A stretch of DNA of 64,000 nt from a virus (Duplodnaviria; Caudoviricetes): the IMG/VR virus record IMGVR_UViG_3300048582_000118, positions 687 through 64,686 of that record. The stretch is one strand, 5' to 3'. Below, in pieces: positions 5,356 to 34,374 of the stretch. The notes below the pieces were generated by a model. The model did not search any database. It saw nothing but the letters and a program-made list of their open reading frames with translations, and was not told the origin of the DNA. Within the stretch, counting starts at the first letter, position 1; the number at the start of each line of letters is the position of its first letter. The position numbers and the translations under genes were made by a program.

Positions 5356-5936
5356 ATCGGTCTCCACCCTGTGTAAGGATCAAATGCATCAATTTCTTCT
5401 TCTGTTGTAAGAGAATCTAATTCGTCTGATTTTGCAAAATAATCCTGCCTAACCATTTCTCGAGTACGTTGAAAACGTGCATGGAAATTCATAAGCTCAG
5501 CAGCCGTTAAAGACTGCATTTGTAGATCTGTTGTAATAATGTCAATTTTATTACTTTCGGTAATTGCATCAACTGGAACCCCGGTTACAATTGCAAGCAC
5601 TTTATCCACTACGATTGTTGTACTAAATGACGATGCATTATACAATTCGCCTTCGGTGAGATCATTTCCGTTCGGAGCATAGTGGAAGTCACCGGCTAAC
5701 TGTTGGCTGCGATACGTTTCTAAATCTACATTTTTAATATCGCGCTTCCATGCAATCCTATCGGCTGTTATTAAAACCCCTTCTTCCGGTATAATCCAGT
5801 ACATAGTCGGTATTTGCTCATTGTCATTAATGACTAAAGAAGTATCCGGATTAATTAACCAAGGTGGATCGGTAAAATCCGGCGTGTTTACGCTCGGAAA
5901 ATATACTTTTGTGATTCTATTAACTACGCTTGCCAT
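5352..5936 (-). CDS. Putative fibre assembly chaperone (DUF4376-like C-terminus)
   Basis: 194 aa in a fibre operon; helical C-terminus ...ELDSLTTEEEIDAFDPYTGW typical of tail-fibre chaperones. Confidence 0.45.
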   Translation of the reverse strand: MASVVNRITKVYFPSVNTPDFTDPPWLINPDTSLVINDNEQIPTMYWIIPEEGVLITADRIAWKRDIKNVDLETYRSQQLAGDFHYAPNGNDLTEGELYNASSFSTTIVVDKVLAIVTGVPVDAITESNKIDIITTDLQMQSLTAAELMNFHARFQRTREMVRQDYFAKSDELDSLTTEEEIDAFDPYTGWRPI

Positions 5937-5938
5937 AT

Positions 5939-6634
5939 TTAAGTTCCTGATAGCCGTGATTTAGTGAAAGTCCGATAGGAAGATACCCATATCGGCGATG
6001 CAGTGTTTGTTTTTCCGTTATATCTATTCGGACTGTAATCCCTAACTGTCCCGTTTAGGGTAGGTGATATTGTGCCATTTTCCGGAGCTTCGTTTAGTTG
6101 ATACCACGCCACTAGACCATCGTACAGACAATCCATACCAGCGGCTTCGTTGTACATCTCTACTTCTTTTTGAGAAAAAGCCCTGTTGTAAATTCTTACA
6201 TCTTCAACTAGGCCGTCATAAGGCCAAGTAGTACCACCATTCCAGCCGCCGAGTGCAAAAATACGAGAAGAGTTAGTTCGCACTGGACCTGTGTAGTTAG
6301 CTGATTCGGTTAATGCGCCGTTGATCCACAACTGAAGTTGAGACCCGGTATACACTGCGCATAACGTCGTAGAATCTTGCGAAATACCGCCGGAGGTAGA
6401 TAAGGCGCGAACTGTGCCATTTATATTTAATCGTACGTTAATCTTTTTCCCGTTGCTGATGTGTATGCCAAAGTCTCCCGAACCTACGGATGTTCCGGAG
6501 GTTTGACTCATTATGTATGCATTAGAAGTACTCAATGCCTGAACCGTACACATAAAAGAACACGCACTTAATCCATTTAGGGGAATGTTAGTGGTTGCTA
6601 TAAGTTGATTAGCTCCGGTGAAGTTAACTGCCAT
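5939..6634 (-). CDS. LamG/concanavalin A-like lectin domain protein
   Basis: LCAVYTGSQLQLWING...ALGG...YDGLVEDVRIYNRAFSQKEV and GLVAWYQLNE motifs of the Laminin_G_3 family. Confidence 0.8.
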   Translation of the reverse strand: MAVNFTGANQLIATTNIPLNGLSACSFMCTVQALSTSNAYIMSQTSGTSVGSGDFGIHISNGKKINVRLNINGTVRALSTSGGISQDSTTLCAVYTGSQLQLWINGALTESANYTGPVRTNSSRIFALGGWNGGTTWPYDGLVEDVRIYNRAFSQKEVEMYNEAAGMDCLYDGLVAWYQLNEAPENGTISPTLNGTVRDYSPNRYNGKTNTASPIWVSSYRTFTKSRLSGT

Positions 6635-9600
6635 TATATAAATCCTATGCCAAGTTCTATCAAATTAAAGTCACCCACTAATGTATCTCCTGCTATTGCG
6701 GCATCTCGAGCTAATTCAAAATTATACAGTGTTCCGGCAATTAAATTTGCTGTAGTTAACGCATAAGTAAACGTATACTTAGTATAGTTTGCAGTTCCGT
6801 TAATAACGCAAGGAATACTAGTAACGGAATTTCCCCAAGCCGGCACAGCGGTGCCGTTAGGTACCGCACGGCTATATAATCTCATTATTGCAGTAGTGGT
6901 TGCAGCAGAAGACGCCCTCCCTGTTATCGATAATTGTATAGAAGTGGCGGCTGCTGGTATCGATACCATGAACCCGACACCTTCCGGAGTAGTATCGTCG
7001 AACGCTCTTCGTATTAACGAATTAAAACTTGCATCGGGCGACAATGACGCAAACGTAGCGACTGGCCAATCACTATTATTAGGTGATTGAAACATATCTG
7101 CATAGTAGGTAATAGATGAATTCACAAGGCCGGCGCCGACTGACCCAGGGCGCCATTGTCCTGCTGCTTGGTTCCACACTAAACCTTGACCGGTAGTCGG
7201 GGCAATAGTTGCAGTGTCAACATCGTTAAGCGCATTGATCGAAAACGCACTAATACCTGTGATAAACCCAGCATTATTATTAAGTAAAGTAATGTTGCTG
7301 CCAGATTGCAAGGCGGTGTCTGCTTTAGTACCTTGTGCTGCTGTTGCAAAACTTGCGCTATTGAACGCACTACTTGCCACTGTTCCGCCTGTAGCCTGTA
7401 CAGTAAAGTTACCGTTGGTACCACCGGAAATTGTACTAATTTTGCCGGTATTTAGCGTGTTCAACGCTGCTGTAACAGTAGTACCGACAACAGCCGACGA
7501 GTTAGTAATTAACGTCGAGTTATAATCCCCGGATGTTGCAACTACTGCACCGGTACGAGTGAATACGCTAGTTACCGCGCTTGCTGGGGTACTGTTTATC
7601 CATTTACTAGTAGCATTATCGTAAGATAATACTTGCCCTTGCGCAGGCGTAGTAATAGTGGTATCTGTCAACGAGGTTAATGTGCCGGCTGTTGCTACAC
7701 TTGCAAGGCCGGTAATGGACGACGATGCTATAGTTGTAGAATATGTTACCTGGGTGCCGCCGGCGTTCCATCGTAGATATCCGTTACCTACAGCAGGTGT
7801 TGCAGTATCGCTAAGTCCCAATAGTGTAAAGCTACTATTAGTAGGAATAGTCGGTGTGCCAGTTAAATCGGTATATGCACCGGTTGTGGCTACTGTTGCA
7901 AGCCCTGTAATTTTAGCTGTCGGGATAGTAGCTGCATATACAACTTCTGTTCCGGTTGCATTCCACAATAAGTATCCGCTGTTAACTACAGTATCGTTAG
8001 TGTCACTTAGTCCTAAAAACGAATAAGCAGACGACGTAGGTTTGTTAGACAAGTCGTTGAAATTACCGCTTGTTGCTACTGTTGCAAGACCGGTTACGTT
8101 AGCAGCCGCAATTGCAGTTTCGTATACAACCGAAGTGCCGGTGCTGTTCCATCTTAGGTAGCCGCTGTTGACCGCTGTTGCAGTAGTGTCGCTCAAACCT
8201 TTTAATGTAAACGTGCTATTAGTAGGGATGGTCGGCTGGTTGATTAAATCATTGTAGCTACCACTTGTCGCCACTGTTGCGAGACCGGTAACAGATGCCA
8301 CTGGAATTGTAGCCGAGTATGTAACTTGTGTGCCGGTTCCGTTCCATCTTAAGTACCCGTTGTTTACAGCGGGCGTTGCAGTGTCGCTTAATCCCAGTAA
8401 TGTAAAGCTGCTGTTAGTAGGAATAGTCGGTGTCCCAGTTAAATCAGTGTATGCCCCGGTTGTTGCTACTGTTGCGAATCCAGTCACTGCGGTCGACGGA
8501 ATTGTAGCCGAGTAAGTTACTGATGTTCCGCCAGCATTCCATCTTAGATAGCCGCTGTTTACTACGGTGTTGTCGGTGTCGCTTAATCCAACGAAGCTAA
8601 AGCTGTTGTTAGTAGGAATAGTAGGCTGATTGATTAAATCGGTGTAGCTACCGCTTGTTGCTACTGGTGCTAGTCCTGTGATTACTGTTGTCGGAATCGT
8701 AGTAACGTAAGTCACTAATGTTCCGCCAGCATTCCATCTTAGATAACCATTGCCCACGGCAGGCGTTGCAGTGTCGCTTAATCCTAATAATGCGAAGCTG
8801 CTGTTAGTAGGAATAGTAGGCTTGTTGGACAAACTGTTGTAGTTTACAACTTTGTTTACCCACACTGTTCCGTTATACACTAACGCCTGATCATTAACAG
8901 GTGCAGTAATAGTGACGCCGCCGATGGTGTTTATCGTCGGCACTACTTCGTTGGAGTTAATCCATGCGGTTCCATTGTATCTTAGAATTTGATCAAGCGT
9001 CGGGGCAGATATGCTTACATCAGTTAAGCTACCGAGCGTAGACGGTATTGCTGGAGTGTTTATTAAATCAGCATAATCGCCGGTGGTCGCCACTGTCGCA
9101 AGCGGAACATCTTGTATAGTAAGATCGCCGGTGATATTAACAACCCCCGTCGGGCTTATAGTTAAACGAGGCTGACTGTCCGTAGAGAATGCAACAAGAT
9201 CTTGCGACGGACTATACATGCCGTAAGTGGCAACTGGATACTGTGCACCGGAGTTTGCAAACCCGTATGCAGGTGTTGCCGGGGAACTGTTGTTAGCAAA
9301 TATTCTACCTGTATTTACACCTACCGATCTACCGTTGTTTACTATTGCAAACGTAGGTATGCCGCCGGACACAGTGTTTGTTGCAAGCTCCATGTTAACG
9401 AAATCAGTGAATATAGATTTATTAATATCGAATTGACTATCTGTTACTACTAATCTACCGGCATTCGACGTTCTCTTTAAGTCGATGGTATTGTTTAGAA
9501 TAGCAGTAGCAGTAATAGCTAAATTACCGCTGCCGGTTGTTTCGCCGGCAACAGCGCAATTCCATATAGTGGACTCGCCTATGCGTAATTTACCGTTGCC

Positions 9601-12600
9601 GACCCTGGCGCCGCCACCTGTTGCAGTAGTATTAGTGTTGTTGATTTCCACCGGTATAGCTTGTATAATACCTTCAGCACAATCTATGCCAACTACGACA
9701 GAATCACTAAGTAGCGCGCCTGCGAGTGTATATACACACTGCGAATGTATTGTCTGGATGCCTATATTACATAACGTTGTCCTTCCCGACGAGAAGTATA
9801 GTCTCTGTAAGTTAGCCGGTATATCAGCAGTGGAAGTAACACCCACATCGCAATTTTGTATTTCTACTCCCTTCAGATTAAATAAGCCGGCACCTTTTAG
9901 CGCGACACCGACCGATCCTACGGCATTATTGCCGATTATATTGAGACCGGCTAACGTGGACCCGAAGTCTGCGCTCGATGACGACAACACAATTACGGGT
10001 GCTGCGTTTACCCCTACTATAGTAGAATTTAAACCTAACACCCCAATTCTTTGATCATTAATTTCAATAGGGTTATCTTCGTTGTAAACACCTGGCAAAA
10101 TATTAACTGTTACGAAATCATCCGGCGATAGTGTTGCCGCTAATGCTGTAGCAGCCTCTACACCTTTCTTAACAGTTGCATATGGATGCAAGCCGGATCC
10201 GTCGCCTGTTAGGTCATTGCCTGTTGTCATAACTATCACAGTGTTGCTATCGGCAGGCAATGTTGCACGTATTGCTTCCCACTGTGTACCGTTAAACTGT
10301 AGCAAATCTTTAGGTTGTTGACCTGTAGTGACTACGTCTGTTAAACTACCTAAAGTTGTAGGAATAGTCGGCTTATTAGTTAAACTATTGTAATTTACGT
10401 TTTGATTAATCCAGCTAGTACCGTTATATACTAACGCTTGCTGTGCAATCGCGCCGGAGATCGAAACATCCTCAAGTCCACCTAATGTTACGCCGTCGCC
10501 GGCAGTAGTTAAGTCATCTGCCGGCAGCCACGTTAATGTGGTTGAATTCCACTTTAACACTTGTCCGTTTGTTACTCCGGTTGTATCTACATCACCGATG
10601 CTATTTAACGTAGGTACAGTTGCGACTGGATTCCCATTAATCCAACGATCACTAGCAGTGCTGTAAATTAACGATTGCCCGTCAGCTGGCGCAGTAATAA
10701 CTACGTCCGTTGCATCATTTAGTATGCCGCTGAAGCCTATTGCCGAAATATCTGCAATTCGAGCGTATACGCTTAAATTGGGCTGACCGGTCAACGACGA
10801 GTAAGGCACAAATTGGTTAACCCATGTAGTACCGTTCCACACTAGTGCCTGATTTGTTAAACGGGACGAGGTGATAACGTCGGTTAAGTCAGATAGTAAA
10901 ACTGGTATAGACGGCTTGTTGATTAAGTCGTTGTAACTACCGCTTGTTGCTACGGTAGCAAATCCGGTTACCGCAGTAGACGGAATAGTCGACGAATAAA
11001 TTACACTAGTTCCTGCAGAATTCCATTGCAAATATGCATTTGCTACTGCGGTCGACGAAGTATCACTTAACCCTCTTAATGTAAAGCTGCTGTTAGTAGG
11101 AATAGTAGGCTTGTTGGACAAACTGTCGTAGTTTACAACTTTGTTTACCCAATCGGTGCCATTGAATACTAACGCTTGGTCATTAACTGGGGAACTAAGC
11201 ACAACGCCGCCGAGGGTGTTTATCGTAGGCACTACTTCGTCAGAGTTAATCCATGTGGTTCCGTTGTATCTTAGCAGCTGATTAGTGGTTGCAGATGCAA
11301 CCGACACATTAGATAAATCATCTAATACAGACGGTATAAACGGTGCATTTATTAAATCGTTATAGTTGCCGCTTGTCGCTACAGCAGCAAGTCCAGTGAC
11401 GTCCGAAGCAGGGATAGCCGCATCATATATAATTGCAGTACTATCTGCGTTCCACTGTAAGTAACCCGAGTTAACAGGCGCATCGGTTGTGTCAGCTAAA
11501 CCTAAGAAAGTGAATGTGTCGTTTGTAGGAATACTCGGCTTGTTTAGCAAGTCGTTGTATTGGCCGGTTGTTGCTACTGTAGACAGCCCAGACACAGAAG
11601 CTGCTGGAATAACAGTAGAGTATGTAATATTTGTGCCAGCAGCATTCCATTGCAAATAACCCAATGCTAAAGGCGTATCGAGTGTATCATTTAATCCTAC
11701 GAAACTAAAATTGTTGTTAGTAGGAATGGTTGGCGTATCGGTTAAATCAGTGTAACTGCCAGATATTGCAACTGCTGCAAGCCCTGCAATATCACCGGAG
11801 CTAATAATAGTTTCATAGACTACATTTGTCCCGGCACTATTCCATCTTAGGTAACCGCTTGCCTCCGGAGTGTCAGTGACATCACTAAGGCCTACTATCG
11901 TAAATGAATTATTAGTAGGAATTGTCGGAGTGTTAATCAAATCACTGTAGCTGCCACTCGTTGCTACGTCAGCAAGACCGTCGATTGCAGTAGGTGGAAT
12001 AGTTGCAGTGTACTCAATTGCAGTTGCAGTATCGTCCCATTTTAAGAAGCTGTTAGCAACTTTAGCATCGACAGTATCGTTTAACCCAACGAAACTATAG
12101 GAGTCGTTAGTAGGCGTACCAGATAAGTCCGAAAATGCACCGCTTGTTGCTACAGTAGCAAGACCGGTTATTACTGTCGAAGGAATGGTAGCTTGGTATA
12201 TAACTTGTGTACCGGCGGAGTTCCATCTTAGGAATCCGTTTACTAATGCAGTACCTAGTGTATCGCTTAATCCCGTTAATGTATAACTTGCTGATGTAGG
12301 CGTACCAGATAAGTCGGAGAATGCCCCACTTGTTGCTACGGCAGCAAGGCCGGTTACATCACTCGACGGTATAGTAGCAACATATTCTACCGATGCTCCA
12401 GAAGCATTCCACCTTAAATAGGCCTCAGCAAGCGAAGTATCGGCCGTGTCGCTTAATCCAGTTAATGTAAAACTACTGTTACCCGGTATAGTCGGTTTAT
12501 TTGATAAATCGTTGTAATTTCCGGTTGTTGCCACTGTTGCAAATCCAGAGACCGCGGTCGACGGAATGACAGTAGAATATATAATACTTGTACCAGCAGC

Positions 12601-15600
12601 ATTCCACTGCAAATACCCTAATGCTGTTGGAGCATCAAGAGTATCGTTTAAGCCCACAAAACTAAAACTGCTGTTAGTGGGGATAGTCGGCGTATTTATT
12701 AGATCATCGTAATCACCACTAGTAGCAACCGATGCTAGGCCGGTGATACTAGCAGCGCCGATTGTTGTCTCGTATACTACATTAGTGCCGGAAGTATTCC
12801 ATCGCAGGTATCCGTTTGCTGTTGCAGTAGCAGAAGTATCATTTAAGCCTGTTAGCGAAAAACTATTGTTAGTCGGCAAAGCAGTAGGAACCCATGCAGT
12901 ACCATTCCACAACACAGTAGAACTACCTACTGTCGGTGGAACTGTCGTCATATTTACATCAGACAACTGACTGTAAGATAAAGGAATGAATGGTTTGTTT
13001 TGCAGAGTACCGTAGTCAACATCCTCGTTTACCCACACTGTACCGTCCCAGACTAGCGCCTGCCCTATGTCCTTAACGACTCCGATGTCTGTGTCAGTTA
13101 GATCGTTTAATGTGCTCGGTACAGTGTATGAAGTGTTAACCCACTGATTGTTAATACTATCGTATCCTAAGACTTGTCCGTCCTGTGGACTAGTAATAGA
13201 AACGTCAGTTAAATCATTTAAATCAGCAACTGGCGCAGGCATCGGTGTGTTAACCCACTTAGTACCATTCCACCTTAGTATATTACCATTTGTGATAGCA
13301 CTTATTGTTACGTCTGTTAACCCTGACATGCCGATCTTGTCAGTTAATTCATTATAACTAATATATTTGTTTATCCAGGCCGTACCGTTGTATCCAAGAT
13401 ACTGACTATTAGCCGGGGAGACGATAATAACATCGTCGAGATCATCTAATTGCCCGCTGACAACCGGCACTGACTTAACATTAAAGAATGTAACAGGAGC
13501 AGTATAACGAAACTTAGCAGGAGACGTCACTGACGAATTTAAACTAACCGGAGTAGCAAAAGAACTATTGGCGCCTGCTAACAGAGTTGTAGTCGGATTA
13601 GTTAAATTAGAAGGGTCTACAACTTCGCCGTCGGCGCCTTCGTACACATTATTAAATCCGATCCATAATTCCCGAGTAGTAGTATCTATAGCAAACTGAA
13701 CTACACCCGGCTGGACGCTAGTGGAATCTAAAGTAAATTGTGTAAATGTGTGCGCTAATACCCCATCTTTGTATAGTGAATTATCATTAAAATTAACAGA
13801 AATGTACCCGATGCTTGCCGAAGGATCTTCGTTAAAATTCGTAACAATGTTATAATCAAATAAACCCATTTGAACATTGTTATCCACGGACCTTACATCA
13901 TATTCTAAATACAGCAAGTCGCTACTAAAAGGGTTTAGTGCAGAACGGTCCGTTACAACAGTGCCTAACCCGGCACTCGTTGCAATTGCCGTCTTTTTAT
14001 CAGTACTTAATCCCTTGTTCACCGACGGAGGAACAGTATACAATACACCGTCTACTAGCACCTGATTACTACTATCGGCTGCTGCAACCCATTTTACTCC
14101 ATCGAATTTTAAGACATCGCCGGCTGCTGGGGACGGCACTGTCACATCCGACATTGTGTTGATACTAGATGCTGCACCAAGAATAACTACAAGTCCGTTA
14201 TCTAATGCAACCTTAGGCGATAATCCGTTTGTTAAATTATTTCGTCGAAATAAATTGTTCCAGGTCATGTCGTCTACACATAGCTCTTGTCCGGCGGGAA
14301 TCGTTATGCTGCCAAGTACATCGGAGTTGCAAAATGCCTTAGGGTATCGGTAAGGCCATAACGTTGTTTTACCAACATTAATAATTACATCGTTATTAAT
14401 AATAGTGTTGTTAAAATATTCATATGTGCCGATATCGATTTGATTAATTTGGCTATCTTCTACTGAAGACAATTGTAATTTAGGAAATTCAATGTTATCT
14501 ACAAAACAATTCTTTAAGTATAACGACATTGCATTAGGTTGTGTGTTGCCAGACCATTTAAAGTCGTTAAATGTTGCTCCCCAGAAATATACAATCTGCG
14601 TACCGGTATTTAGGTATTCGGGATCAGTGCCAGTATCGACTGTTACATCGCCTGCAAAGACCCATTGGGAGTAATTACTAACTAATTCTACAGAAAGTGC
14701 GCTAGAGTAAGTACCGGTAAATTGTGTTGCTATGACTCCTTGCGCTGGCATATTGAGATAGGGAATAGTAACATTACCGGTGTTATTAGCAGATGAACCG
14801 ACACGCACCACGCCCGACGATGCAAAAGACAGAATTCTCCACTTCGGGAGTACGAGATTTTCATCGTATGGTGCAGGAGTACTTGCAACGGAAATTATCC
14901 AACCGGGAAATAACGATTCGGGTCCTGTGCCATCACCGATCTCGTCTAACGCCCTGCTAATAGTACGAAATGGCTTATACACGGATCCTGTATTTTTGTT
15001 ATCGTCGCCGGTGAGAGCGTCAACGTACAACTTCTGCGCTTCGGCACCGATTTTAGTAGTACTTGACTGCCATAGATTAGTAGTTCCATCAAATAATAGA
15101 ATATCGCCGGTTACAGGAAACGGTGCATCGACATCTGTTAAGTCATTAATCGAACTCGGCGGAACCTCGGTTGCGGTAATATAACCGACGTCGTTGTTTA
15201 ATTCACTGATGTCATTGCCACTTTGCAAAGCAGTATCGGCTAAATCACCTTGTGCTATAGTTGCGTAGAAAGCAGCATAATCTCCTACAAGTGGCGCTAC
15301 GGCTCCATTTCTTCCATTGAACGAAGCTACGCCTGCATCGGGAGGGATATCAGCCGCAGTGATATACCCTGCGTCGTTGACTAATAGACTTACGTTATTG
15401 CCTGATTGCAAAGCAGTATCGGCTAAATCACCTTGTGCAGTAGTTGCATAAAACGATGCATAATCACTTGCCTCTGCTGTAATTGCGCCAGTGCGTCCAA
15501 AGACCGATGGTATCGCATCGGCAGGTATATCAGCAGCAGTGATAAATCCGGTATCATTATCTAGTTCACTAATAGGGTCGTTTGGTTGCAGGGCAGTATC

Positions 15601-16110
15601 AGCCAAATCACCCTGTGCAGTAGTTGCATAGAAAGCAGCATAATCGTTTTCATCGGCTACTATTGCACCAGTGCGACTAAAGACCGAAGGGACCGCGTCT
15701 GCAGGCACTTGAGCAGCAGTTATAAACCCACTGTCGTTGTTTAATTCACTGATATCGTCACCACTTTGCAAAGCAGTGTTGGCTAATGCGCCTTGTGTAG
15801 TGGTTGCATAAAAAGCAGCATAATCGTTTTCGTCGGCAATGATAGCGCCGGTGCGTCCAAAGACGCTATCGACTGCACTAGTACCGCCACCTGTTACTGT
15901 CTGAAAAGTCAAATTACCGGAACCATCCGTCATTATTACTTGCCCCGACGTTCCGTCGGTATCAGGATACGATATACCGGAAATTGTCACTTGTCCTACC
16001 GAATTTAATATGTCGAACCCGGCGGTATCTAAATCTGCAGACAACGACGGACTATTGTCGAAAATAAGACTAGTGTTACTTTTTGCAATATCGGATAATT
16101 TGATTGCCAT
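6634..16110 (-). CDS. Giant (3158 aa) repeat-rich virion fibre protein with putative beta-helix and SPRY/lectin-like inserts
   Basis: Thr/Ser/Ala/Gly-rich with three repeat families. Two DUF1565-like openers (VDALTGDDNKNTGSVYKPFRTISRAL; TTGNDLTGDGSGLHPYATVKKG) precede beta-helix-like segments. Confidence 0.75.
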   Translation of the reverse strand: MAIKLSDIAKSNTSLIFDNSPSLSADLDTAGFDILNSVGQVTISGISYPDTDGTSGQVIMTDGSGNLTFQTVTGGGTSAVDSVFGRTGAIIADENDYAAFYATTTQGALANTALQSGDDISELNNDSGFITAAQVPADAVPSVFSRTGAIVADENDYAAFYATTAQGDLADTALQPNDPISELDNDTGFITAADIPADAIPSVFGRTGAITAEASDYASFYATTAQGDLADTALQSGNNVSLLVNDAGYITAADIPPDAGVASFNGRNGAVAPLVGDYAAFYATIAQGDLADTALQSGNDISELNNDVGYITATEVPPSSINDLTDVDAPFPVTGDILLFDGTTNLWQSSTTKIGAEAQKLYVDALTGDDNKNTGSVYKPFRTISRALDEIGDGTGPESLFPGWIISVASTPAPYDENLVLPKWRILSFASSGVVRVGSSANNTGNVTIPYLNMPAQGVIATQFTGTYSSALSVELVSNYSQWVFAGDVTVDTGTDPEYLNTGTQIVYFWGATFNDFKWSGNTQPNAMSLYLKNCFVDNIEFPKLQLSSVEDSQINQIDIGTYEYFNNTIINNDVIINVGKTTLWPYRYPKAFCNSDVLGSITIPAGQELCVDDMTWNNLFRRNNLTNGLSPKVALDNGLVVILGAASSINTMSDVTVPSPAAGDVLKFDGVKWVAAADSSNQVLVDGVLYTVPPSVNKGLSTDKKTAIATSAGLGTVVTDRSALNPFSSDLLYLEYDVRSVDNNVQMGLFDYNIVTNFNEDPSASIGYISVNFNDNSLYKDGVLAHTFTQFTLDSTSVQPGVVQFAIDTTTRELWIGFNNVYEGADGEVVDPSNLTNPTTTLLAGANSSFATPVSLNSSVTSPAKFRYTAPVTFFNVKSVPVVSGQLDDLDDVIIVSPANSQYLGYNGTAWINKYISYNELTDKIGMSGLTDVTISAITNGNILRWNGTKWVNTPMPAPVADLNDLTDVSITSPQDGQVLGYDSINNQWVNTSYTVPSTLNDLTDTDIGVVKDIGQALVWDGTVWVNEDVDYGTLQNKPFIPLSYSQLSDVNMTTVPPTVGSSTVLWNGTAWVPTALPTNNSFSLTGLNDTSATATANGYLRWNTSGTNVVYETTIGAASITGLASVATSGDYDDLINTPTIPTNSSFSFVGLNDTLDAPTALGYLQWNAAGTSIIYSTVIPSTAVSGFATVATTGNYNDLSNKPTIPGNSSFTLTGLSDTADTSLAEAYLRWNASGASVEYVATIPSSDVTGLAAVATSGAFSDLSGTPTSASYTLTGLSDTLGTALVNGFLRWNSAGTQVIYQATIPSTVITGLATVATSGAFSDLSGTPTNDSYSFVGLNDTVDAKVANSFLKWDDTATAIEYTATIPPTAIDGLADVATSGSYSDLINTPTIPTNNSFTIVGLSDVTDTPEASGYLRWNSAGTNVVYETIISSGDIAGLAAVAISGSYTDLTDTPTIPTNNNFSFVGLNDTLDTPLALGYLQWNAAGTNITYSTVIPAASVSGLSTVATTGQYNDLLNKPSIPTNDTFTFLGLADTTDAPVNSGYLQWNADSTAIIYDAAIPASDVTGLAAVATSGNYNDLINAPFIPSVLDDLSNVSVASATTNQLLRYNGTTWINSDEVVPTINTLGGVVLSSPVNDQALVFNGTDWVNKVVNYDSLSNKPTIPTNSSFTLRGLSDTSSTAVANAYLQWNSAGTSVIYSSTIPSTAVTGFATVATSGSYNDLINKPSIPVLLSDLTDVITSSRLTNQALVWNGTTWVNQFVPYSSLTGQPNLSVYARIADISAIGFSGILNDATDVVITAPADGQSLIYSTASDRWINGNPVATVPTLNSIGDVDTTGVTNGQVLKWNSTTLTWLPADDLTTAGDGVTLGGLEDVSISGAIAQQALVYNGTSWINQNVNYNSLTNKPTIPTTLGSLTDVVTTGQQPKDLLQFNGTQWEAIRATLPADSNTVIVMTTGNDLTGDGSGLHPYATVKKGVEAATALAATLSPDDFVTVNILPGVYNEDNPIEINDQRIGVLGLNSTIVGVNAAPVIVLSSSSADFGSTLAGLNIIGNNAVGSVGVALKGAGLFNLKGVEIQNCDVGVTSTADIPANLQRLYFSSGRTTLCNIGIQTIHSQCVYTLAGALLSDSVVVGIDCAEGIIQAIPVEINNTNTTATGGGARVGNGKLRIGESTIWNCAVAGETTGSGNLAITATAILNNTIDLKRTSNAGRLVVTDSQFDINKSIFTDFVNMELATNTVSGGIPTFAIVNNGRSVGVNTGRIFANNSSPATPAYGFANSGAQYPVATYGMYSPSQDLVAFSTDSQPRLTISPTGVVNITGDLTIQDVPLATVATTGDYADLINTPAIPSTLGSLTDVSISAPTLDQILRYNGTAWINSNEVVPTINTIGGVTITAPVNDQALVYNGTVWVNKVVNYNSLSNKPTIPTNSSFALLGLSDTATPAVGNGYLRWNAGGTLVTYVTTIPTTVITGLAPVATSGSYTDLINQPTIPTNNSFSFVGLSDTDNTVVNSGYLRWNAGGTSVTYSATIPSTAVTGFATVATTGAYTDLTGTPTIPTNSSFTLLGLSDTATPAVNNGYLRWNGTGTQVTYSATIPVASVTGLATVATSGSYNDLINQPTIPTNSTFTLKGLSDTTATAVNSGYLRWNSTGTSVVYETAIAAANVTGLATVATSGNFNDLSNKPTSSAYSFLGLSDTNDTVVNSGYLLWNATGTEVVYAATIPTAKITGLATVATTGAYTDLTGTPTIPTNSSFTLLGLSDTATPAVGNGYLRWNAGGTQVTYSTTIASSSITGLASVATAGTLTSLTDTTITTPAQGQVLSYDNATSKWINSTPASAVTSVFTRTGAVVATSGDYNSTLITNSSAVVGTTVTAALNTLNTGKISTISGGTNGNFTVQATGGTVASSAFNSASFATAAQGTKADTALQSGSNITLLNNNAGFITGISAFSINALNDVDTATIAPTTGQGLVWNQAAGQWRPGSVGAGLVNSSITYYADMFQSPNNSDWPVATFASLSPDASFNSLIRRAFDDTTPEGVGFMVSIPAAATSIQLSITGRASSAATTTAIMRLYSRAVPNGTAVPAWGNSVTSIPCVINGTANYTKYTFTYALTTANLIAGTLYNFELARDAAIAGDTLVGDFNLIELGIGFI
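7640..8820 (-). repeat. Coding tandem repeat block (six ~65-aa units, GYLxWN...ATVATSGxYxDL..PTIP)
   Basis: Six GYL(R/L)WN units at ~190-195 nt spacing; boundaries approximate. Confidence 0.8.
10900..12880 (-). repeat. Coding tandem repeat block (nine ~65-aa units of the same family)
   Basis: Nine (Y/F)L(R/Q/K)W(N/D) units, interrupted once by LxDV...W.N repeats; boundaries approximate. Confidence 0.8.
15150..15870 (-). repeat. Coding tandem repeat (four ~60-aa units VFGRTGAI...DYAAFYATxxQG.LADTALQSG)
   Basis: Four units at ~180-nt period, visible in both DNA and protein. Confidence 0.85.
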
Positions 16111-30314: not shown

Positions 30315-30532
30315 TGTCTGCTGATTACGCCAAAATAGCAGAAGTTGTTCAGGGCATGGAAAAAGATCAAGATGCATTACACCATCAAATAGGTGATATA
30401 TGTTATTGGATGAAGGGCGGTATTACCTGGGACGAAGCATGGGCACTGTCGTTTAGAGATAGAGAACGCTTGATTAAGAGCTTAAATGATAAAATACGCA
30501 AGCAAAGTGGAGACACGAGAGAGTATATGTAA
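30314..30532 (+). CDS. Small hub assembly protein, gp51-like; probable -1 frameshift extension of the gp26-like gene
   Basis: TGATG overlap; ICYWMKGGITWDEAWALSFRDRE; this frame is open back through the T7 slippery run. Confidence 0.65.
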   Translation: MSADYAKIAEVVQGMEKDQDALHHQIGDICYWMKGGITWDEAWALSFRDRERLIKSLNDKIRKQSGDTREYM

Positions 30533-31044
30533 TGAACACTTTATTAAATTACGATTTTCCGAAAACAGACAAAGAGTGTTGGGAAAAATTCCCTCACTTG
30601 AACTGGGTTTATAACACTACGCGATTACTAGATTGTCAACATTTGTCATGGGCGCCTTTCCCTACAGAGGCGTTCACCCACGGAATAGAAATATTCATGT
30701 ATGATAAGAAAATAAAATTTAGCAGCGAAAATTTATCATCGCTCGTGTATGTTTCTCCGCCCACAGGAAAATTAGTTACCACTGAAGTAATTATTCATAA
30801 AGGTGAGATTAAATGGCTAGGGCATATTACTTCACCTAATACCATTTCCGAAAGTATCACCGGAGACATAGACCTCTGTATAAATGCTTTTGTTACGTTA
30901 TACTTTAAAAAGTTCACAGGAATTATATCTGTAGATACAATCGGGCATTACATATATGCAGTAAGGTTAAGACCTACACATAGCATGGGCAGTTTTTATT
31001 CAGAAGAAGCACAAAAAATTTTAAAGAAGATATTTAAAAAATAA
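30532..31044 (+). CDS. Hypothetical protein (N-terminus resembles phage ATP-grasp-like proteins)
   Basis: 170-aa ORF coupled by TAATG; DKECWEKFPHLNWVYN motif; the functional guess is weak. Confidence 0.6.
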   Translation: MNTLLNYDFPKTDKECWEKFPHLNWVYNTTRLLDCQHLSWAPFPTEAFTHGIEIFMYDKKIKFSSENLSSLVYVSPPTGKLVTTEVIIHKGEIKWLGHITSPNTISESITGDIDLCINAFVTLYFKKFTGIISVDTIGHYIYAVRLRPTHSMGSFYSEEAQKILKKIFKK

Positions 31045-31058
31045 ATTAATACAAATTT

Positions 31059-31083
31059 AGCCGCTTTAAATAGCGGCTTTTTT
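31059..31083 (+). terminator. Intrinsic terminator
   Basis: AGCCGCT-TTAAAT-AGCGGCT followed by a T-run, 15 nt after the stop at 31044. Confidence 0.8.
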
Positions 31084-31138
31084 ACGACTTTAATCCCTGA
31101 ACTAAAACTCGTAGCTATCCATTATTCTCTATCATACT

Positions 31139-32017
31139 CAGTGGCAAGCCACTGTAAAAAATAAATGCAGTTAAGCTCACATTCGTTCGCTTCTGCATTT
31201 ATTTTTTAATTTCTTTAATATTAGATATAACTATTATTTTACAGTTTTAATTCTTCTGCTTTTGATCCACTACTACCTGGTGTGGAAGATATTTGTCATA
31301 TAACGGTAACTGAATGCTCGCGCCTAAGCGCGATGCATTCGGTCGTTATTACCCGTTACGCGGGTACTTTAAAAAAACTGTAAGACATATAAAACCTGTC
31401 TTACAGTTTTTTTAACAATAACGCACAACCTGGTTAGTTGTCCTATTTCTCATACAGTCGTACTTAACCCGATGTTAAGTCACCTAAGCGAATGATTAGT
31501 TACGCAAAGGGGGCGGTTAGCCGGTACCACGACCCGTCAGTCTAGCGGAAGCCAAAGTAGTCGCTAATGAGGACGAACTAAATTGACCAATGTTGCGCCA
31601 TGCTATTAAATCGTTAGCATATTCTTTTCTATCCTATACATATAGGGCGCAGAGCAAAATCTTTTTTGGTGGGATCTTGTGACACCCAAGCTCCGAACGG
31701 CCGCCACTACAACGCCGTCCTCAATGGGATAGTTTATTAGACTATAATTAGGTCACTTGTTCAGAATTTAAGATTAGAAGCTAATCTAACCACATTAAAT
31801 CCTTTTTGCCCATAACAAGGGGCTGCAAATATATTTAATTGGGAGTTTTAATAAGTAAAATAAGAACGCTGCTCACCATTCCCGCTCTAGCGTTATTGTC
31901 GGGGGCTATTGTTTATATATTTAAATTATGTTATGCTGTATTTGACGCCCTATCCACTAGCAATGTCATGGGAGCGGTTTGTATAGTTTATATGTAATAT
32001 CTATAAGTTTTTTAAGT
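31139..32017 (-). ncRNA. Candidate large structured non-coding RNA or replication-origin region (unassigned)
   Basis: About 1 kb with no ORF in the track, many perfect hairpins and crossed long-range helices; CATAAATA late-like motif on the minus strand at 32023-32030. Strand and ends are inferred. Confidence 0.4.
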
Positions 32018-32061
32018 AAAGGTATTTATGTTGTCGTTTTAAAATCTGTTGTAAAAAGTGG

Positions 32062-32586
32062 TCACGTAAAAAAGAACGTATCTTCGTTTGCTAACACTGT
32101 TTCTAATTTATAACCGTAGTATCCTTTGTATTTAAGTTGGCATTCGACTTCGTCTAGCGGTGAGTCTAAAAATACAATTTCTTTTACATTATTGTATTTT
32201 ATTATTAACATCATTGCTTTGCCGGCACTTATACTATCTTGTTTAGCTTGTGCTAGCCAGCCGTCCCACTGTGTTACTTGTTGATCGAATACACTTTGGA
32301 ATGTAGGCGCTGATTTATAGTGCTTACATTCCAAAGTATACTTAAAATCTCGCGGACAGATTAAATCGCCGAATACAGCATAATCCAAATTATGCGTTGT
32401 AGTTCGGCGAGCGTTTGAACCGCCATAAAATGACCCCGAATCCGGATTCCTCTGAAAACCTTTTTCCACTTTTAAGTGCGTTTTAAATCTGTCAGACAGT
32501 AAATTTGCAATCTTACGTTCAAAATTGTTCCCTTTTGCTTTGCCGTTAACTGCCTTTGATTTAGTTGTCATACTACTATGTATCAT
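32062..32586 (-). CDS. Holliday-junction resolvase-like PD-(D/E)XK nuclease
   Basis: KAKGNNFERKIA...SGSFYGG...GDL...LECKHY...W..QA motifs; the start may be ATG 32571. Confidence 0.7.
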   Translation of the reverse strand: MIHSSMTTKSKAVNGKAKGNNFERKIANLLSDRFKTHLKVEKGFQRNPDSGSFYGGSNARRTTTHNLDYAVFGDLICPRDFKYTLECKHYKSAPTFQSVFDQQVTQWDGWLAQAKQDSISAGKAMMLIIKYNNVKEIVFLDSPLDEVECQLKYKGYYGYKLETVLANEDTFFFT

Positions 32587-32616
32587 TAACGAAATCTAGA
32601 TCGTATTTAAAATGGT

Positions 32617-34374
32617 TTATTTACTCTCCGGTGCAAATGTTGTAAATCCGTTCTCCTTTACAACTTGCAGTATGTTGCTAACTCGCCCGTTTAGTTCGTC
32701 TCGATGGCTAATTAAGAAGATGTTTCTATGCTGATCTCTGCTCATTTTCTTTAACACACCTAATGCACTTTCCACACCTGATGTATCTAAACCGTTATCT
32801 AAAAGTTCGTCGATGAACAATAAATTAATACGATCGTTTAAACTTTCGTAAACATCCCTAAACGCCCATGACAGCGACAGAATTAAACGAGTCCTTTCGC
32901 CGCGACTTAGATTATCAAAGTCGAAGTCTCTACCGTACTGTGTTATTTCTACTTCCAAGTCCGATTTAAACTTAACTTCGTGCGGTAATCCCACTTTAGT
33001 TAAATAGTTCGATAGTCGACTATTTAGGTATGCAAGATTTTGATCGATAATCTTTTTTCGAATAAAACTATCCTTGTTTGTTAGTAATTTAAGCAAGAAT
33101 TCCTGATGATCCCTTAGAGATGTCATGGTGTTCATGAATTCGTAATCAACTTTCTGCAACGCACCTTTGCGCAAAGAATCTACTTGATCTTTATACGGAT
33201 TCTTTGTGTTAGCTTCCCTCTCTAGGTTATTTGTCAACTCTAGTAGAGTTGATTTATGATTTAATGCATCCTCTAATGTTTCATAATACGTATTGATATC
33301 CTCTTCGACTTCTAAAGAAACCATTTTTTCTTCTATTTCTGCGAGATTAGATGTCTTTTCGTTTATCTTTTCCGATAAAATAGTAGCTTCTGCTTCGTAT
33401 TCTGCATGTACTTTTTTGTGTGTACTCTTGTCCATTTCTTGGCTACAAGTAGGACAGACTTTTTCTGTCGATTTACTAAGGTGAGTATTTGTGGCTGCAA
33501 GATTTTTCGTATAGAGCGCAATTTCTTTTTTAAGTGCAGTTACTTCTTGATTTAGTGTTTTGTATTCGGCATAAACAATCGCAGATTCTGCATTCTTTTT
33601 GTGTGCATTAATCTCAATAGTGATATCTAGGTGTTCGAGCGCAACAATCTTTTCACTGTACTCTTCTAGCTGTGTGCTTTTAGATTTTTCCCACGCTGCA
33701 CTTTTTATCTCAATAGATTTGATATTATCTTCTATTTTTTTATTAGCTTCGTTAGTAGCTTTGATGCGAAATTCTTCTTCCTTGATAGCATCTTTGACTT
33801 CTTTTAGTTGTACTTTTAGGTTTTCTGCTTTTTCCGATAGCTTAGTAATACCTAACAATTGTTCAATTAAATCGCGCTGTTCGTTAGATTTTAATGCAAG
33901 AAATGGTTCGTTATATGTATTGAGTGCAATGATCTGCTTAAACATATCGTGCGTAATACCGATGGTGTTCTCGACCTCAACCTGTGTCAACCGGCTATCG
34001 CCCTGAGCCTCATCGGTTTCGCCGTCGTGCGCAATACCATTTACAATAAATTTAAAAATGTTAGGCTTACGCCCTCTTTCAATTCGATATACCGTTCCGT
34101 CTTTCTCAAATTCGATTGTTACCATCATGCCTTTAGTATTAATTTTGTTAACAAGATTGTCTTTTTTAATCTTAACTAACGCTTCCCCATATAAGGCATA
34201 AGAAATAGCATTTAGGATTGAGGATTTACCAGTGCCGTTTCTATTATCGTTGCCGCCGAGGTCTAAATTCTCGCCTAATACCAGTGTCAATTCCTCGTCA
34301 GTAAATGTCACGGCTTGTGACACATTCCCCACTGAAAGAAAGTTTTTAACTGTAATATTCTTTATGTTTATCAT
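32617..34374 (-). CDS. gp46: Recombination endonuclease ATPase subunit, gp46 (Rad50/SbcC-like)
   Basis: Walker A NGTGKS, CPTC zinc hook, signature LSRGE, Walker B LFIDE, ISH. Confidence 0.93.
   Translation of the reverse strand: MINIKNITVKNFLSVGNVSQAVTFTDEELTLVLGENLDLGGNDNRNGTGKSSILNAISYALYGEALVKIKKDNLVNKINTKGMMVTIEFEKDGTVYRIERGRKPNIFKFIVNGIAHDGETDEAQGDSRLTQVEVENTIGITHDMFKQIIALNTYNEPFLALKSNEQRDLIEQLLGITKLSEKAENLKVQLKEVKDAIKEEEFRIKATNEANKKIEDNIKSIEIKSAAWEKSKSTQLEEYSEKIVALEHLDITIEINAHKKNAESAIVYAEYKTLNQEVTALKKEIALYTKNLAATNTHLSKSTEKVCPTCSQEMDKSTHKKVHAEYEAEATILSEKINEKTSNLAEIEEKMVSLEVEEDINTYYETLEDALNHKSTLLELTNNLEREANTKNPYKDQVDSLRKGALQKVDYEFMNTMTSLRDHQEFLLKLLTNKDSFIRKKIIDQNLAYLNSRLSNYLTKVGLPHEVKFKSDLEVEITQYGRDFDFDNLSRGERTRLILSLSWAFRDVYESLNDRINLLFIDELLDNGLDTSGVESALGVLKKMSRDQHRNIFLISHRDELNGRVSNILQVVKENGFTTFAPESK

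Follow-up and report, generated by a model that had tools for sequence, protein, structure and literature searches.

Among the described systems closest in kind are GOLLD and ROOL, phage-borne structured RNAs of about 0.5 kb or more with several domains, linked with phages and also with prophages, which were likewise found by comparative genomics (bioRxiv 10.1101/2024.12.08.627333; PMC5737381; as far as the accessible parts of these sources describe them). Here we analyse a gap at positions 31045-32061 of a 64,000-nucleotide (nt) stretch of DNA from a virus of the Caudoviricetes (IMG/VR record IMGVR_UViG_3300048582_000118, positions 687 to 64,686), hereafter called the window. The gap measures 1017 nt and is touched by six short open reading frames (ORFs) of 30-52 amino acids (aa) each, while no ORF of at least 60 aa lies within it; an earlier reading of the letters alone (the sequence-only reading) had noticed the lack of ORFs here in an otherwise gene-dense genome. 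It is likely to be a phage gene for a structured non-coding RNA, encoded on the minus strand as a divergent subtype of a family of about 0.5 kb. GOLLD and ROOL are both represented in Rfam by models that did not match the window RNA, whose genomic setting also differs from theirs: a constant place in jumbo myovirus genomes, with DNA-repair genes on one side and baseplate genes on the other.

The second known element of relevance is the Polynucleobacter-1 motif (RF01718, 141 nt), whose table entry in Weinberg 2010 gives it as a probable RNA with a probably cis-regulatory role, and names Burkholderiales and fresh water or estuary as its sources (PMC2864571). That paper was the only full text retrieved under the name of the motif, and the accessible literature on GOLLD or ROOL with phage and on structured RNA in T4-like freshwater phages gave no account of the larger RNA described here. 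The motif constitutes the 5' domain in relatives of the window RNA, on the same strand and in an agreeing habitat (fresh water, Burkholderiales), and window positions 31756-31679 resemble, by eye, its 3' half (closing helix, ACUAUCC-loop-GGACG, second hairpin). However, it covers only about a quarter of the larger RNA, and several elements described below lie outside it, namely the 3' domain with its pseudoknot, the invariant module, the boxes and the hairpins at the 3' end. Phage T4 encodes rnaC and rnaD, small stable RNAs near tRNA genes and a seg homing endonuclease. These resemble the present case as stable non-coding RNAs of a T4-type genome with free-standing GIY-YIG genes beside them, but are much smaller and part of a tRNA cluster, whereas ARAGORN detects neither a tRNA nor a tmRNA gene in the 64 kb of the window.

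Relatives of the gap, numbered with the prefix L, were mainly retrieved with short words of its own sequence. A 20-mer (31509-31528) recurs in one other viral contig, L015, which is syntenic with the window and 66.6-74.5% DNA-identical in its coding genes, while the 17-mer at 31512-31528, GGUACCGGCUAACCGCC, recurs without any change in the gaps of L015 and L134 that are syntenic with this one, and in about 15 other distinct sequences. Family-like flanks surround a 15-mer version in 14 out of 48 viral loci and the 17-mer in 16 out of 54 metagenome loci and in none of 18 bacterial-genome loci; one of these last, in a Burkholderiales metagenome-assembled genome (L233:5938-5954), carries the exact 17-mer inside an RNase P class A RNA (RF00010, 222 bits). 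A 14-mer, TTGTGACACCCAAG, was discarded as a probe, with at least 117 viral loci and L015 as the sole relative among those inspected. After removal of duplicates about 15 distinct sequences besides the window remain, which are here divided into the window-type (the window, L015 and L183) and the main group, that is, all other members. The loci have flanking genes in common, as judged by N-terminal similarity, Pfam and PHROG, while the immediate upstream neighbour varies between a PDDEXK nuclease, a GIY-YIG protein and unknown proteins of 354-380 aa with the RNA being kept.

A model, R1, was built from 12 main-group sequences under exclusion of the window-type. Two further loci, L005 and L006, score 61.1 bits with R1 (E 5e-10). 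The matching stretch follows the nuclease gene on the same strand, at a distance of about 200 nt; its 17-mer is altered at three positions and its pseudoknot words are intact. Since these loci were fetched by their nuclease protein and not by the motif, they confirm family, position and strand without circularity. Two GC-rich loci with the 17-mer, L168 and L212, which reach 23.6-26.6 bits over only 34 model positions, were excluded as unproven. The syntenic contig L001 gives no R1 match at E <= 1 in its 800-nt gap downstream of a homologous nuclease (5495-6300) and resembles the family, by eye, in no more than two features, the tandem G-A hairpin on the 3' side and the hairpin that ends the RNA; this gap may hold a still more divergent form of the RNA.

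The structure tested on alignment A1, which comprises the 12 main-group sequences over about 240 nt, consists of H1, H2, H3, H4, H5 and a pseudoknot between the loop of H2 and a strand 3' of the invariant module, with 42 pairs in seven helices altogether. In this structure 86.0% of the alignment cells are paired, compared with 38.5-46.1% when the partners are slid by one to three columns, 28 of the 42 pairs are changed on both sides (11-15 when slid) and the covariation score is 0.517 as opposed to 0.148 or less, values that none of 500 shuffles reached. RNAalifold recovered H2, H3 and H5 independently, and six of the eight pseudoknot pairs change on both sides, while H4 (CYUR and a partner 15 nt on), with 70.8% of cells paired, is kept as tentative. 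Covariation among relatives, which the sequence-only reading had proposed to look for, is thus strong in the 3' domain of the main family. With 55 G-U cells and 11 A-C cells in the helices of this family, the RNA is read from the strand that matches the window minus strand.

From 5' to 3', a main-family RNA is composed of the 5' domain, which equals RF01718 in about half of the lineages; AAAAGAU followed by hairpin H1 with its A-rich loop; hairpin H2, the loop of which pseudoknots with the downstream strand; the motif CCGYURGA, which in all members precedes the 17-mer by about 35 nt; the invariant helix-bulge-hairpin module with the 17-mer as its core; and then, judged by eye and in part by script, a hairpin, often with a GNRA loop; box 1, the long hairpin H5 and box 2; a further hairpin, which bears tandem G-A pairs and is recognized by a pattern script as stem, GA, NN, GNRA, NN, GA, stem; and a terminal hairpin. 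The invariant module H3 is built of an outer helix, which covaries in the main family, a UAC bulge and a CGG-CUAA-CCG hairpin. Boxes 1 and 2 (A1 columns 223-232 and 286-295, for example in L159, L213 and L162) are direct repeats flanking H5, with a core of 7 nt on which the two boxes of one RNA agree, while it varies from one RNA to another; box identity amounts to 6.7 of 10 positions within an RNA versus 4.16 of 10 between RNAs, which 0 of 10,000 permutations reach. No complementary partner following the changes of the boxes was found, and an 'anti-box' switch, in which GUUUGA near the domain junction pairs with the box in some members, was dismissed as it ignores box changes, for example in L162.

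On the same strand and 107-130 nt 5' of the 17-mer, RF01718 matches six of the 12 main-group sequences with 78.9-104.3 bits (L151, L162, L204, L180, L211 and L182, which represent five lineages as L162 and L204 are near-duplicates), whereas the remaining six show no detectable RF01718 domain. The Polynucleobacter-1 motif is thus probably one domain of an RNA of about 0.5 kb. Among 151 sampled Burkholderiales genomes RF01718 exceeds the cut-off in three, all of 1.8-1.9 Mb, and model R1 has no match in these sampled genomes. By eye, the bacterial loci L252 and L253 continue 3' of RF01718 with an AAAGAU hairpin, with the invariant module in variant form and with box 1, H5 and box 2, the cores of which match, then with the tandem G-A hairpin, which the pattern script finds in L252, L253 and also in L005, and with the terminal hairpin, and only then with the next gene; near the L252 copy there is an integrase-like ORF. 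As far as the sequences allow this to be judged, the RNA of about 0.5 kb is not confined to phages, but is also present in genomic islands of some small Burkholderiales genomes. The claim of novelty made by the sequence-only reading consequently has two sides. The window copy has no RF01718 match even at E <= 10, and Rfam, proposed as a check, returns no family for the window itself at the gathering score, but its relatives do match RF01718, which they bear as their 5' domain. What would be new is the larger composite RNA with the 3' domain and the modules beyond RF01718, the motif itself being already known.

The window copy is predicted to extend on the minus strand from about 31906 to 31371 or beyond, that is, over about 540 nt or more, and to represent a divergent subtype (Table). 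It has the same position and strand as the family, downstream of the gp47, gp46 and small-nuclease genes, as the sequence-only reading had proposed, and convergent with the baseplate-hub genes. Its assignment to the family draws on the position of the 17-mer, the spacing of CCGCUAGA, the order of the modules and the blocks common with L015 and L183, and finding the exact 17-mer at the same intergenic position of a 1-kb gap would have, by arithmetic, a chance of about 1e-7. Within the window-type, the closing helix of the three-way junction pairs GCGC with GCGC in the window, AUGC with GCAU in L015 and GUGC with GCAC in L183; its first hairpin has a completely different sequence in the relatives with the pairing kept, while of the second both relatives retain no more than the 3 bp of UGC/GCA. 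The closing helix of domain 2 has counterparts, by eye, in CCCAC/GUGGG of L159 and GUGU/ACAC of L005, and ACUAUCCCAUUGAGGACG agrees with ACUAUCCUUAACAGGACG of L162 at 13 of 18 positions, also by eye, with an extra hairpin in the window and no match to the RF01718 model. Sequence comparison thus establishes, in our view, the existence of the family, its structured 3' domain, the strand of the RNA, its conserved position and the homology of the window copy. The relatives bear out the view of the sequence-only reading that the interval contains a large structured RNA with several domains; this RNA is read on the minus strand, and the interval is no decayed gene.

Not all details of that reading stand. 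Every helix and motif that it named is present where it placed it, but as a set these helices do not exceed chance: in comparison with 200 dinucleotide shuffles, exact inverted repeats of 5 to 9 nt in 31421-32030 are throughout as frequent as in the shuffles (for 8 nt, four observed versus 4.6 +/- 2.8; for 7 nt, 18 versus 16.8; for 6 nt, 61 versus 64.8; for 5 nt, 232 versus 243.5), equally when the spacing is restricted to 60 nt or less, and the folding energies given below equal those of shuffles as well. Chance-level helices can overlie a real RNA, and comparison with relatives alone could tell. Four of the single helices are indeed kept in L015 and L183 by compensatory change, namely TGCGCC/GGCGCA together with CCTATA/TATAGG, ACTTAAC/GTTAAGT and AACGCT/AGCGTT, and the hairpin after the 17-mer is kept with different sequences, while TGAGGACG/CGTCCTCA, TGACC/GGTCA, AGATTAG/CTAATCT and CCGCTC/GAGCGG are not kept, the last of which extends into non-conserved DNA. 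The pseudoknot proposed from TGAGGACG/CGTCCTCA and TGACC/GGTCA can be drawn on paper, but is left without support by L015 and L183: only five (L015) and six (L183) of the eight positions of TGAGGACG/CGTCCTCA pair, and GGTCAC (31751-31756) pairs instead with GTGAC (31679-31683). The helix thus formed is nested and corresponds to the one that closes the 3' half of RF01718; with it the crossing disappears.

Parts of the gap are present in 20 of 22 listed public sequencing runs from 11 studies of freshwater, wetland, sediment, riverine and biofilter origin, some of which contain 43-90% of the words of the gap. Four runs were aligned to 30400-32700 as contigs, which carry no information on level, strand or ends and in which uncovered parts have no meaning. 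A 14.8-kb DNA contig of run X9 spans the region and differs by substitutions only in the flanking genes, whereas within the gap it has indels of 10, 1, 1, 1, 8 and 1 nt, which argues for the gap being non-coding; it also has 83 different bases in place of 31760-31841. For 31508-31599 no differences are listed in the strain comparison, and a paired change of 31600 A>G with 31620 T>C turns an A-T pair of the ATGCTA/TAGCAT hairpin of the X9 contig into G-C. A contig of the RNA-library run X20 covers 31277-31760, with coverage reaching into the neighbouring genes too; since such a library can contain DNA, RNA-library contigs are weak evidence of a transcript, and read-through past the hairpin at 31371-31413, which the X20 contig crosses, is possible.

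Several observations weigh against assigning the window to a structured RNA family. In the window, the pseudoknot partner of the H2 loop amounts to at most 5 bp by eye and shows no covariation in L015 and L183, only 2 bp of the outer H3 helix can form and the pattern script for the tandem G-A hairpin finds it in 0 of the three window-type sequences, with window-type covariation in general being derived from these three sequences and from helix correspondences drawn by eye. The minimum free energy is unremarkable in comparison with shuffles, with z-scores of +1.13 (plus strand) and +0.23 (minus strand) for the 610 nt and of +0.48 and +0.02 for a core of 258 nt. The best R1 match in the 64 kb is the window copy (31622-31477, minus strand, 27.1 bits, E 0.0016), but 50 unrelated loci with the 17-mer score 20.5-25.1 bits and L015 and L183 21 bits. 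R1 therefore adds little beyond the motif, as the 17-mer alone gives similar scores, and as most members were fished with the window's own 17-mer, the test of the window by R1 is largely circular. A second R1 match (5618-5735, E 0.45), inside a 194-aa ORF, was taken as chance. The covariation of the main group has the reservation that the tested structure was derived from the same sequences and that A1 contains the near-duplicate rows L137/L166 and L162/L204. RF01718 matches the window neither at its gathering score of 37 bits nor at E <= 10. Neither the gap nor the L162 RNA has a match by nucleotide comparison (blastn for the gap) in 50,697 GenBank phage records, and PA5oct, the only cultured phage examined, contains no 17-mer within three mismatches and no R1 match including the invariant module.

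Other searches were negative as well. Rfam 15, including GOLLD, ROOL, HEARO and the group I and II introns, has no match in the window at the gathering score, and at E <= 10 the interval 30900-32200 has 16 sub-threshold matches only, mostly to microRNA and small-RNA models and mostly over hairpins near 31040-31110 and 31360-31420; the failure of the sequence-only reading to recognize tRNA, tmRNA or RNase P is thereby upheld. With blastn at word size 7 the gap gives chance matches only in the first 13 syntenic loci, and nhmmer with single sequences retrieves L015 only, plus a weak match in L134.

As to function, the RNA would act in trans as a compactly folded scaffold, with the invariant module and the A-rich loop as surfaces that touch a conserved partner, be it protein or RNA, or on which GNRA loops dock. 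Its size, its pseudoknot, the GNRA loops and the invariant bases that are left unpaired speak for a compact tertiary fold, and a trans-acting scaffold with such contacts is, given a real RNA, our prediction, which we make tentatively and consider possible rather than probable. The conserved region could also act in cis, as the 3' untranslated end of the nuclease operon that serves as terminator or exonuclease block at the site of convergent transcription, and as 5' leader in bacteria. It does lie between convergent genes and has at least three terminator-like hairpins, the bacterial copies are located upstream of a gene and the motif is marked as probably cis-regulatory in the table of PMC2864571. 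As to a separate promoter, the late-like motif TATTTATG at 32023-32030, CATAAATA on the minus strand, is present as the sequence-only reading had noted, but finds no support in this role. It precedes the first conserved block by about 117 nt, where the DNA has no counterpart in L015. Yet an RNA of about 0.5 kb that combines a pseudoknot with invariant loops and with GNRA hairpins far exceeds the needs of termination, the upstream neighbour changes while the RNA is kept and in the bacteria a terminal hairpin stands between the RNA and the gene that follows; in the window, where the following gene is convergent, a role as 5' leader is impossible. A cis-acting role is on this balance unlikely. 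Even less likely is a ribozyme or a derivative of RNase P RNA with the invariant module and the GNRA hairpins as catalytic core. The exact 17-mer in one of the 18 bacterial-genome loci falls in J5/7-P7-P8 of a class A RNase P RNA, the 17-mer and its 5' flank resemble this part in the phages too (13 of 17 positions by eye between the phage consensus around the 17-mer and the Rfam consensus), and size, pseudoknot and invariant single-stranded bases would be typical. The likeness is, however, local only, with RF00010 giving no match at E <= 10 in the window record or in three member records and no counterpart of the P4 core being found; moreover, covariation pairs the flanks of the 17-mer with each other and not in the register of P7/P8, and no known ribozyme family matches.

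That the element functions as DNA, be it as the target of a homing endonuclease, as a replication origin or as a protein site with incidental folds, would be compatible with the SegE-type GIY-YIG genes adjoining it in 5 of 5 lineages tested, with three direct repeats of about 47 bp alongside it in L134 and with boxes 1 and 2 co-varying as direct repeats and not as a helix. The excess of G-U over A-C cells is meaningful only for an RNA from one strand, though, and 28 pairs are changed on both sides. Free-standing homing endonucleases settle beside conserved genes. Homing beside a conserved RNA gene, which is probably what the GIY-YIG association reflects, accounts for it without a DNA function, although nuclease and RNA may also be linked in function, and we regard a DNA-level element as highly improbable. 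Chance-level helices and folding energies, indels between strains and the existence of a hydrophobic 52-aa frame (31839-31997) could finally suggest that nothing functional is present beyond spacer, the remnant of a decayed gene or small ORFs. This is hardly credible in view of the 17-nt identity and the ordered motifs at the same locus, despite only 67-74% DNA identity of the genes, and of the compensatory changes in helices; the 52-aa frame is broken by the 8-nt deletion of the strain contig and, like the other small ORFs, was rejected, with no PHROG match.

The structured RNA, for which we prefer a role in trans, resides in a genome of which the IMG/VR record behind the window is 18% complete according to CheckV, which suggests by arithmetic a whole genome of about 350 kb and hence a jumbo phage; by the hub protein the closest cultured relatives are PA5oct, a jumbo phage of Pseudomonas with 39% identity, and further myoviruses of jumbo size. 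The gene called a resolvase by the sequence-only reading encodes a PDDEXK_15 nuclease according to Pfam, while PHROG has it as RusA-like. On the other side of the gap, the 170-aa ORF (30532-31044) belongs to no Pfam or PHROG family, has a counterpart of 166 aa in L015 and is missing at the same position in L005, L134, L137 and L166. Positions 31085-31300 are an A/T-rich spacer with a strong hairpin at 31160-31205, a potential terminator on either strand, and a 10-nt insertion behind 31120 in one strain contig resembles a tandem duplication. The hairpins at 31300-31366 could belong to the RNA as its 3' tail or be elements of their own; by eye, L015 and L183 have a CCCG...CGGG hairpin and then a long hairpin in the same order. 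Elsewhere in the window, a single ORF of 3158 aa occupies 6634-16110 on the minus strand. The SegE-type proteins beside the RNA are small (140-146 aa) and have the nuclease domain only, and in L015 a separate NUMOD3 / I-TevI DNA-binding ORF follows the GIY-YIG gene. The repeats of L134, a 302-kb phage contig, are located at 9880-10010 just 5' of the conserved domain of the RNA (GTGCCTAGATCGCCTAATGCGAACAAT...) and are iteron-like.

Table. Positions of the parts of the putative RNA and of neighbouring features; window numbering unless a locus is named, minus-strand RNA parts in 5' to 3' order.
Feature	Positions	Strand	Basis and remarks
174-aa nuclease gene, upstream of and co-directional with the RNA	32062..32586	minus	PDDEXK_15 by Pfam, RusA-like by PHROG
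gp47-like (SbcD) and gp46-like (SbcC) genes	beside the gap, nuclease side	minus	
5' conserved block (GCCCCC ... GCUAG.G.GGGAAUGGU.AGCAGC)	31860..31906	minus	kept in window, L015 and L183 (alignment A3)
Hairpin AACGCU/AGCGUU in 5' block	31894-31889 / 31870-31865	minus	C-G to U-A in L183; 5 of 6 positions pair in L015
Variable insert with AGATTAG/CTAATCT hairpin	31761..31859	minus	missing from L015 and L183; largely replaced in X9 contig
Domain 2	31679..31756	minus	hairpin AUAGU/ACUAU, motif CCCAUUGAGGACG, hairpin ACGGC/GCCGU and CUUGGGUG inside closing helix
Closing helix of domain 2, GUGAC/GUCAC	31756-31752 / 31683-31679	minus	invariant in the three window-type sequences
A-rich linker with AAAAGAU, then three-way junction UGCGCC/GGCGCA	31594..31678 (junction 31651-31594)	minus	hairpins CCUAUA/UAUAGG and AUGCUA/UAGCAU; counterpart of H1, judged by eye
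H2 counterpart and conserved motif CCGCUAGA	31529..31593 (motif 31548-31541)	minus	aligned by model R1
Invariant 17-mer GGUACCGGCUAACCGCC, core of module H3	31512..31528	minus	identical in L015 and L134; variant in L005 and L006
Hairpin CCUUUGCG/CGCUUAGG	31510-31483	minus	CCAAGAA/UUCUUGG at same place in L015/L183
Hairpin ACUUAAC/GUUAAGU	31480-31462	minus	UCUCAA/UUGAGA or UCUUAA/UUAAGA in L015/L183
Box 1 GACUGUAUGAGA	31459-31448	minus	GACUG.U.UGAGA kept in window, L015 and L183; resembles main-family ACUCAGAUGAG by eye
Small hairpin ACAAC/GUUGU	31441-31425	minus	after box 1
Long A/U-flanked hairpin, terminator-like on both strands, candidate 3' end of RNA	31371..31413	minus	read from sequence; matched by chance microRNA models; 5' arm ACUGUAAGACA (31407-31397, minus) resembles box 1, 8 of 10 by eye
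Hairpin ACCCG-CGUAA-CGGGU (31366-31350) and long hairpin (31349-31300)	31300..31366	minus	read from sequence
Intrinsic terminator of convergent 170-aa ORF, marking the other gap edge	31059..31078	plus	7-bp stem with 5 G-C pairs, then T run
T4_baseplate hub protein, 96-aa ORF, 170-aa ORF (ends 31044)	other side of the gap	plus	
GIY-YIG loci by the RNA in relatives	L015:2451-3586; L162:747-1175; L182:4780-5208; L213:5125-5565; L151:3648-4076		

With these findings an Rfam motif that has been without function or clear host since 2010 gains a home and a larger architecture, as it appears to be one domain of a pseudoknotted RNA of half a kilobase at a fixed locus of a broad group of uncultured freshwater jumbo myoviruses and in Burkholderiales with small genomes. 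Phages have few large structured RNAs, and GOLLD and ROOL are, as far as the accessible parts of their descriptions go, structurally unusual, so that the RNA of the window family is a further candidate, with the invariant 17-nt module, the covarying pseudoknot and the direct-repeat boxes identical within each RNA as testable features. A far bolder view, which we consider decidedly unlikely, would see in it a new class of RNA machines of about 0.5 kb, common to jumbo phages of fresh water and to mobile islands of the bacteria that are likely to host them, in which Polynucleobacter-1 is the 5' domain, the RNase P P7-P8-like module, the pseudoknot and the GNRA hairpins form a catalytic or ligand-binding core and the boxes are a specificity element retuned by each lineage. 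If this were true, the boxes could be paired identical recognition or processing sites, or a guide-like element that is used with the small nuclease (PDDEXK, or GIY-YIG without a DNA-binding domain) encoded directly upstream. The bacterial copies, if found in cultured Polynucleobacter strains, would open an experimental route that is closed for the uncultured phages.

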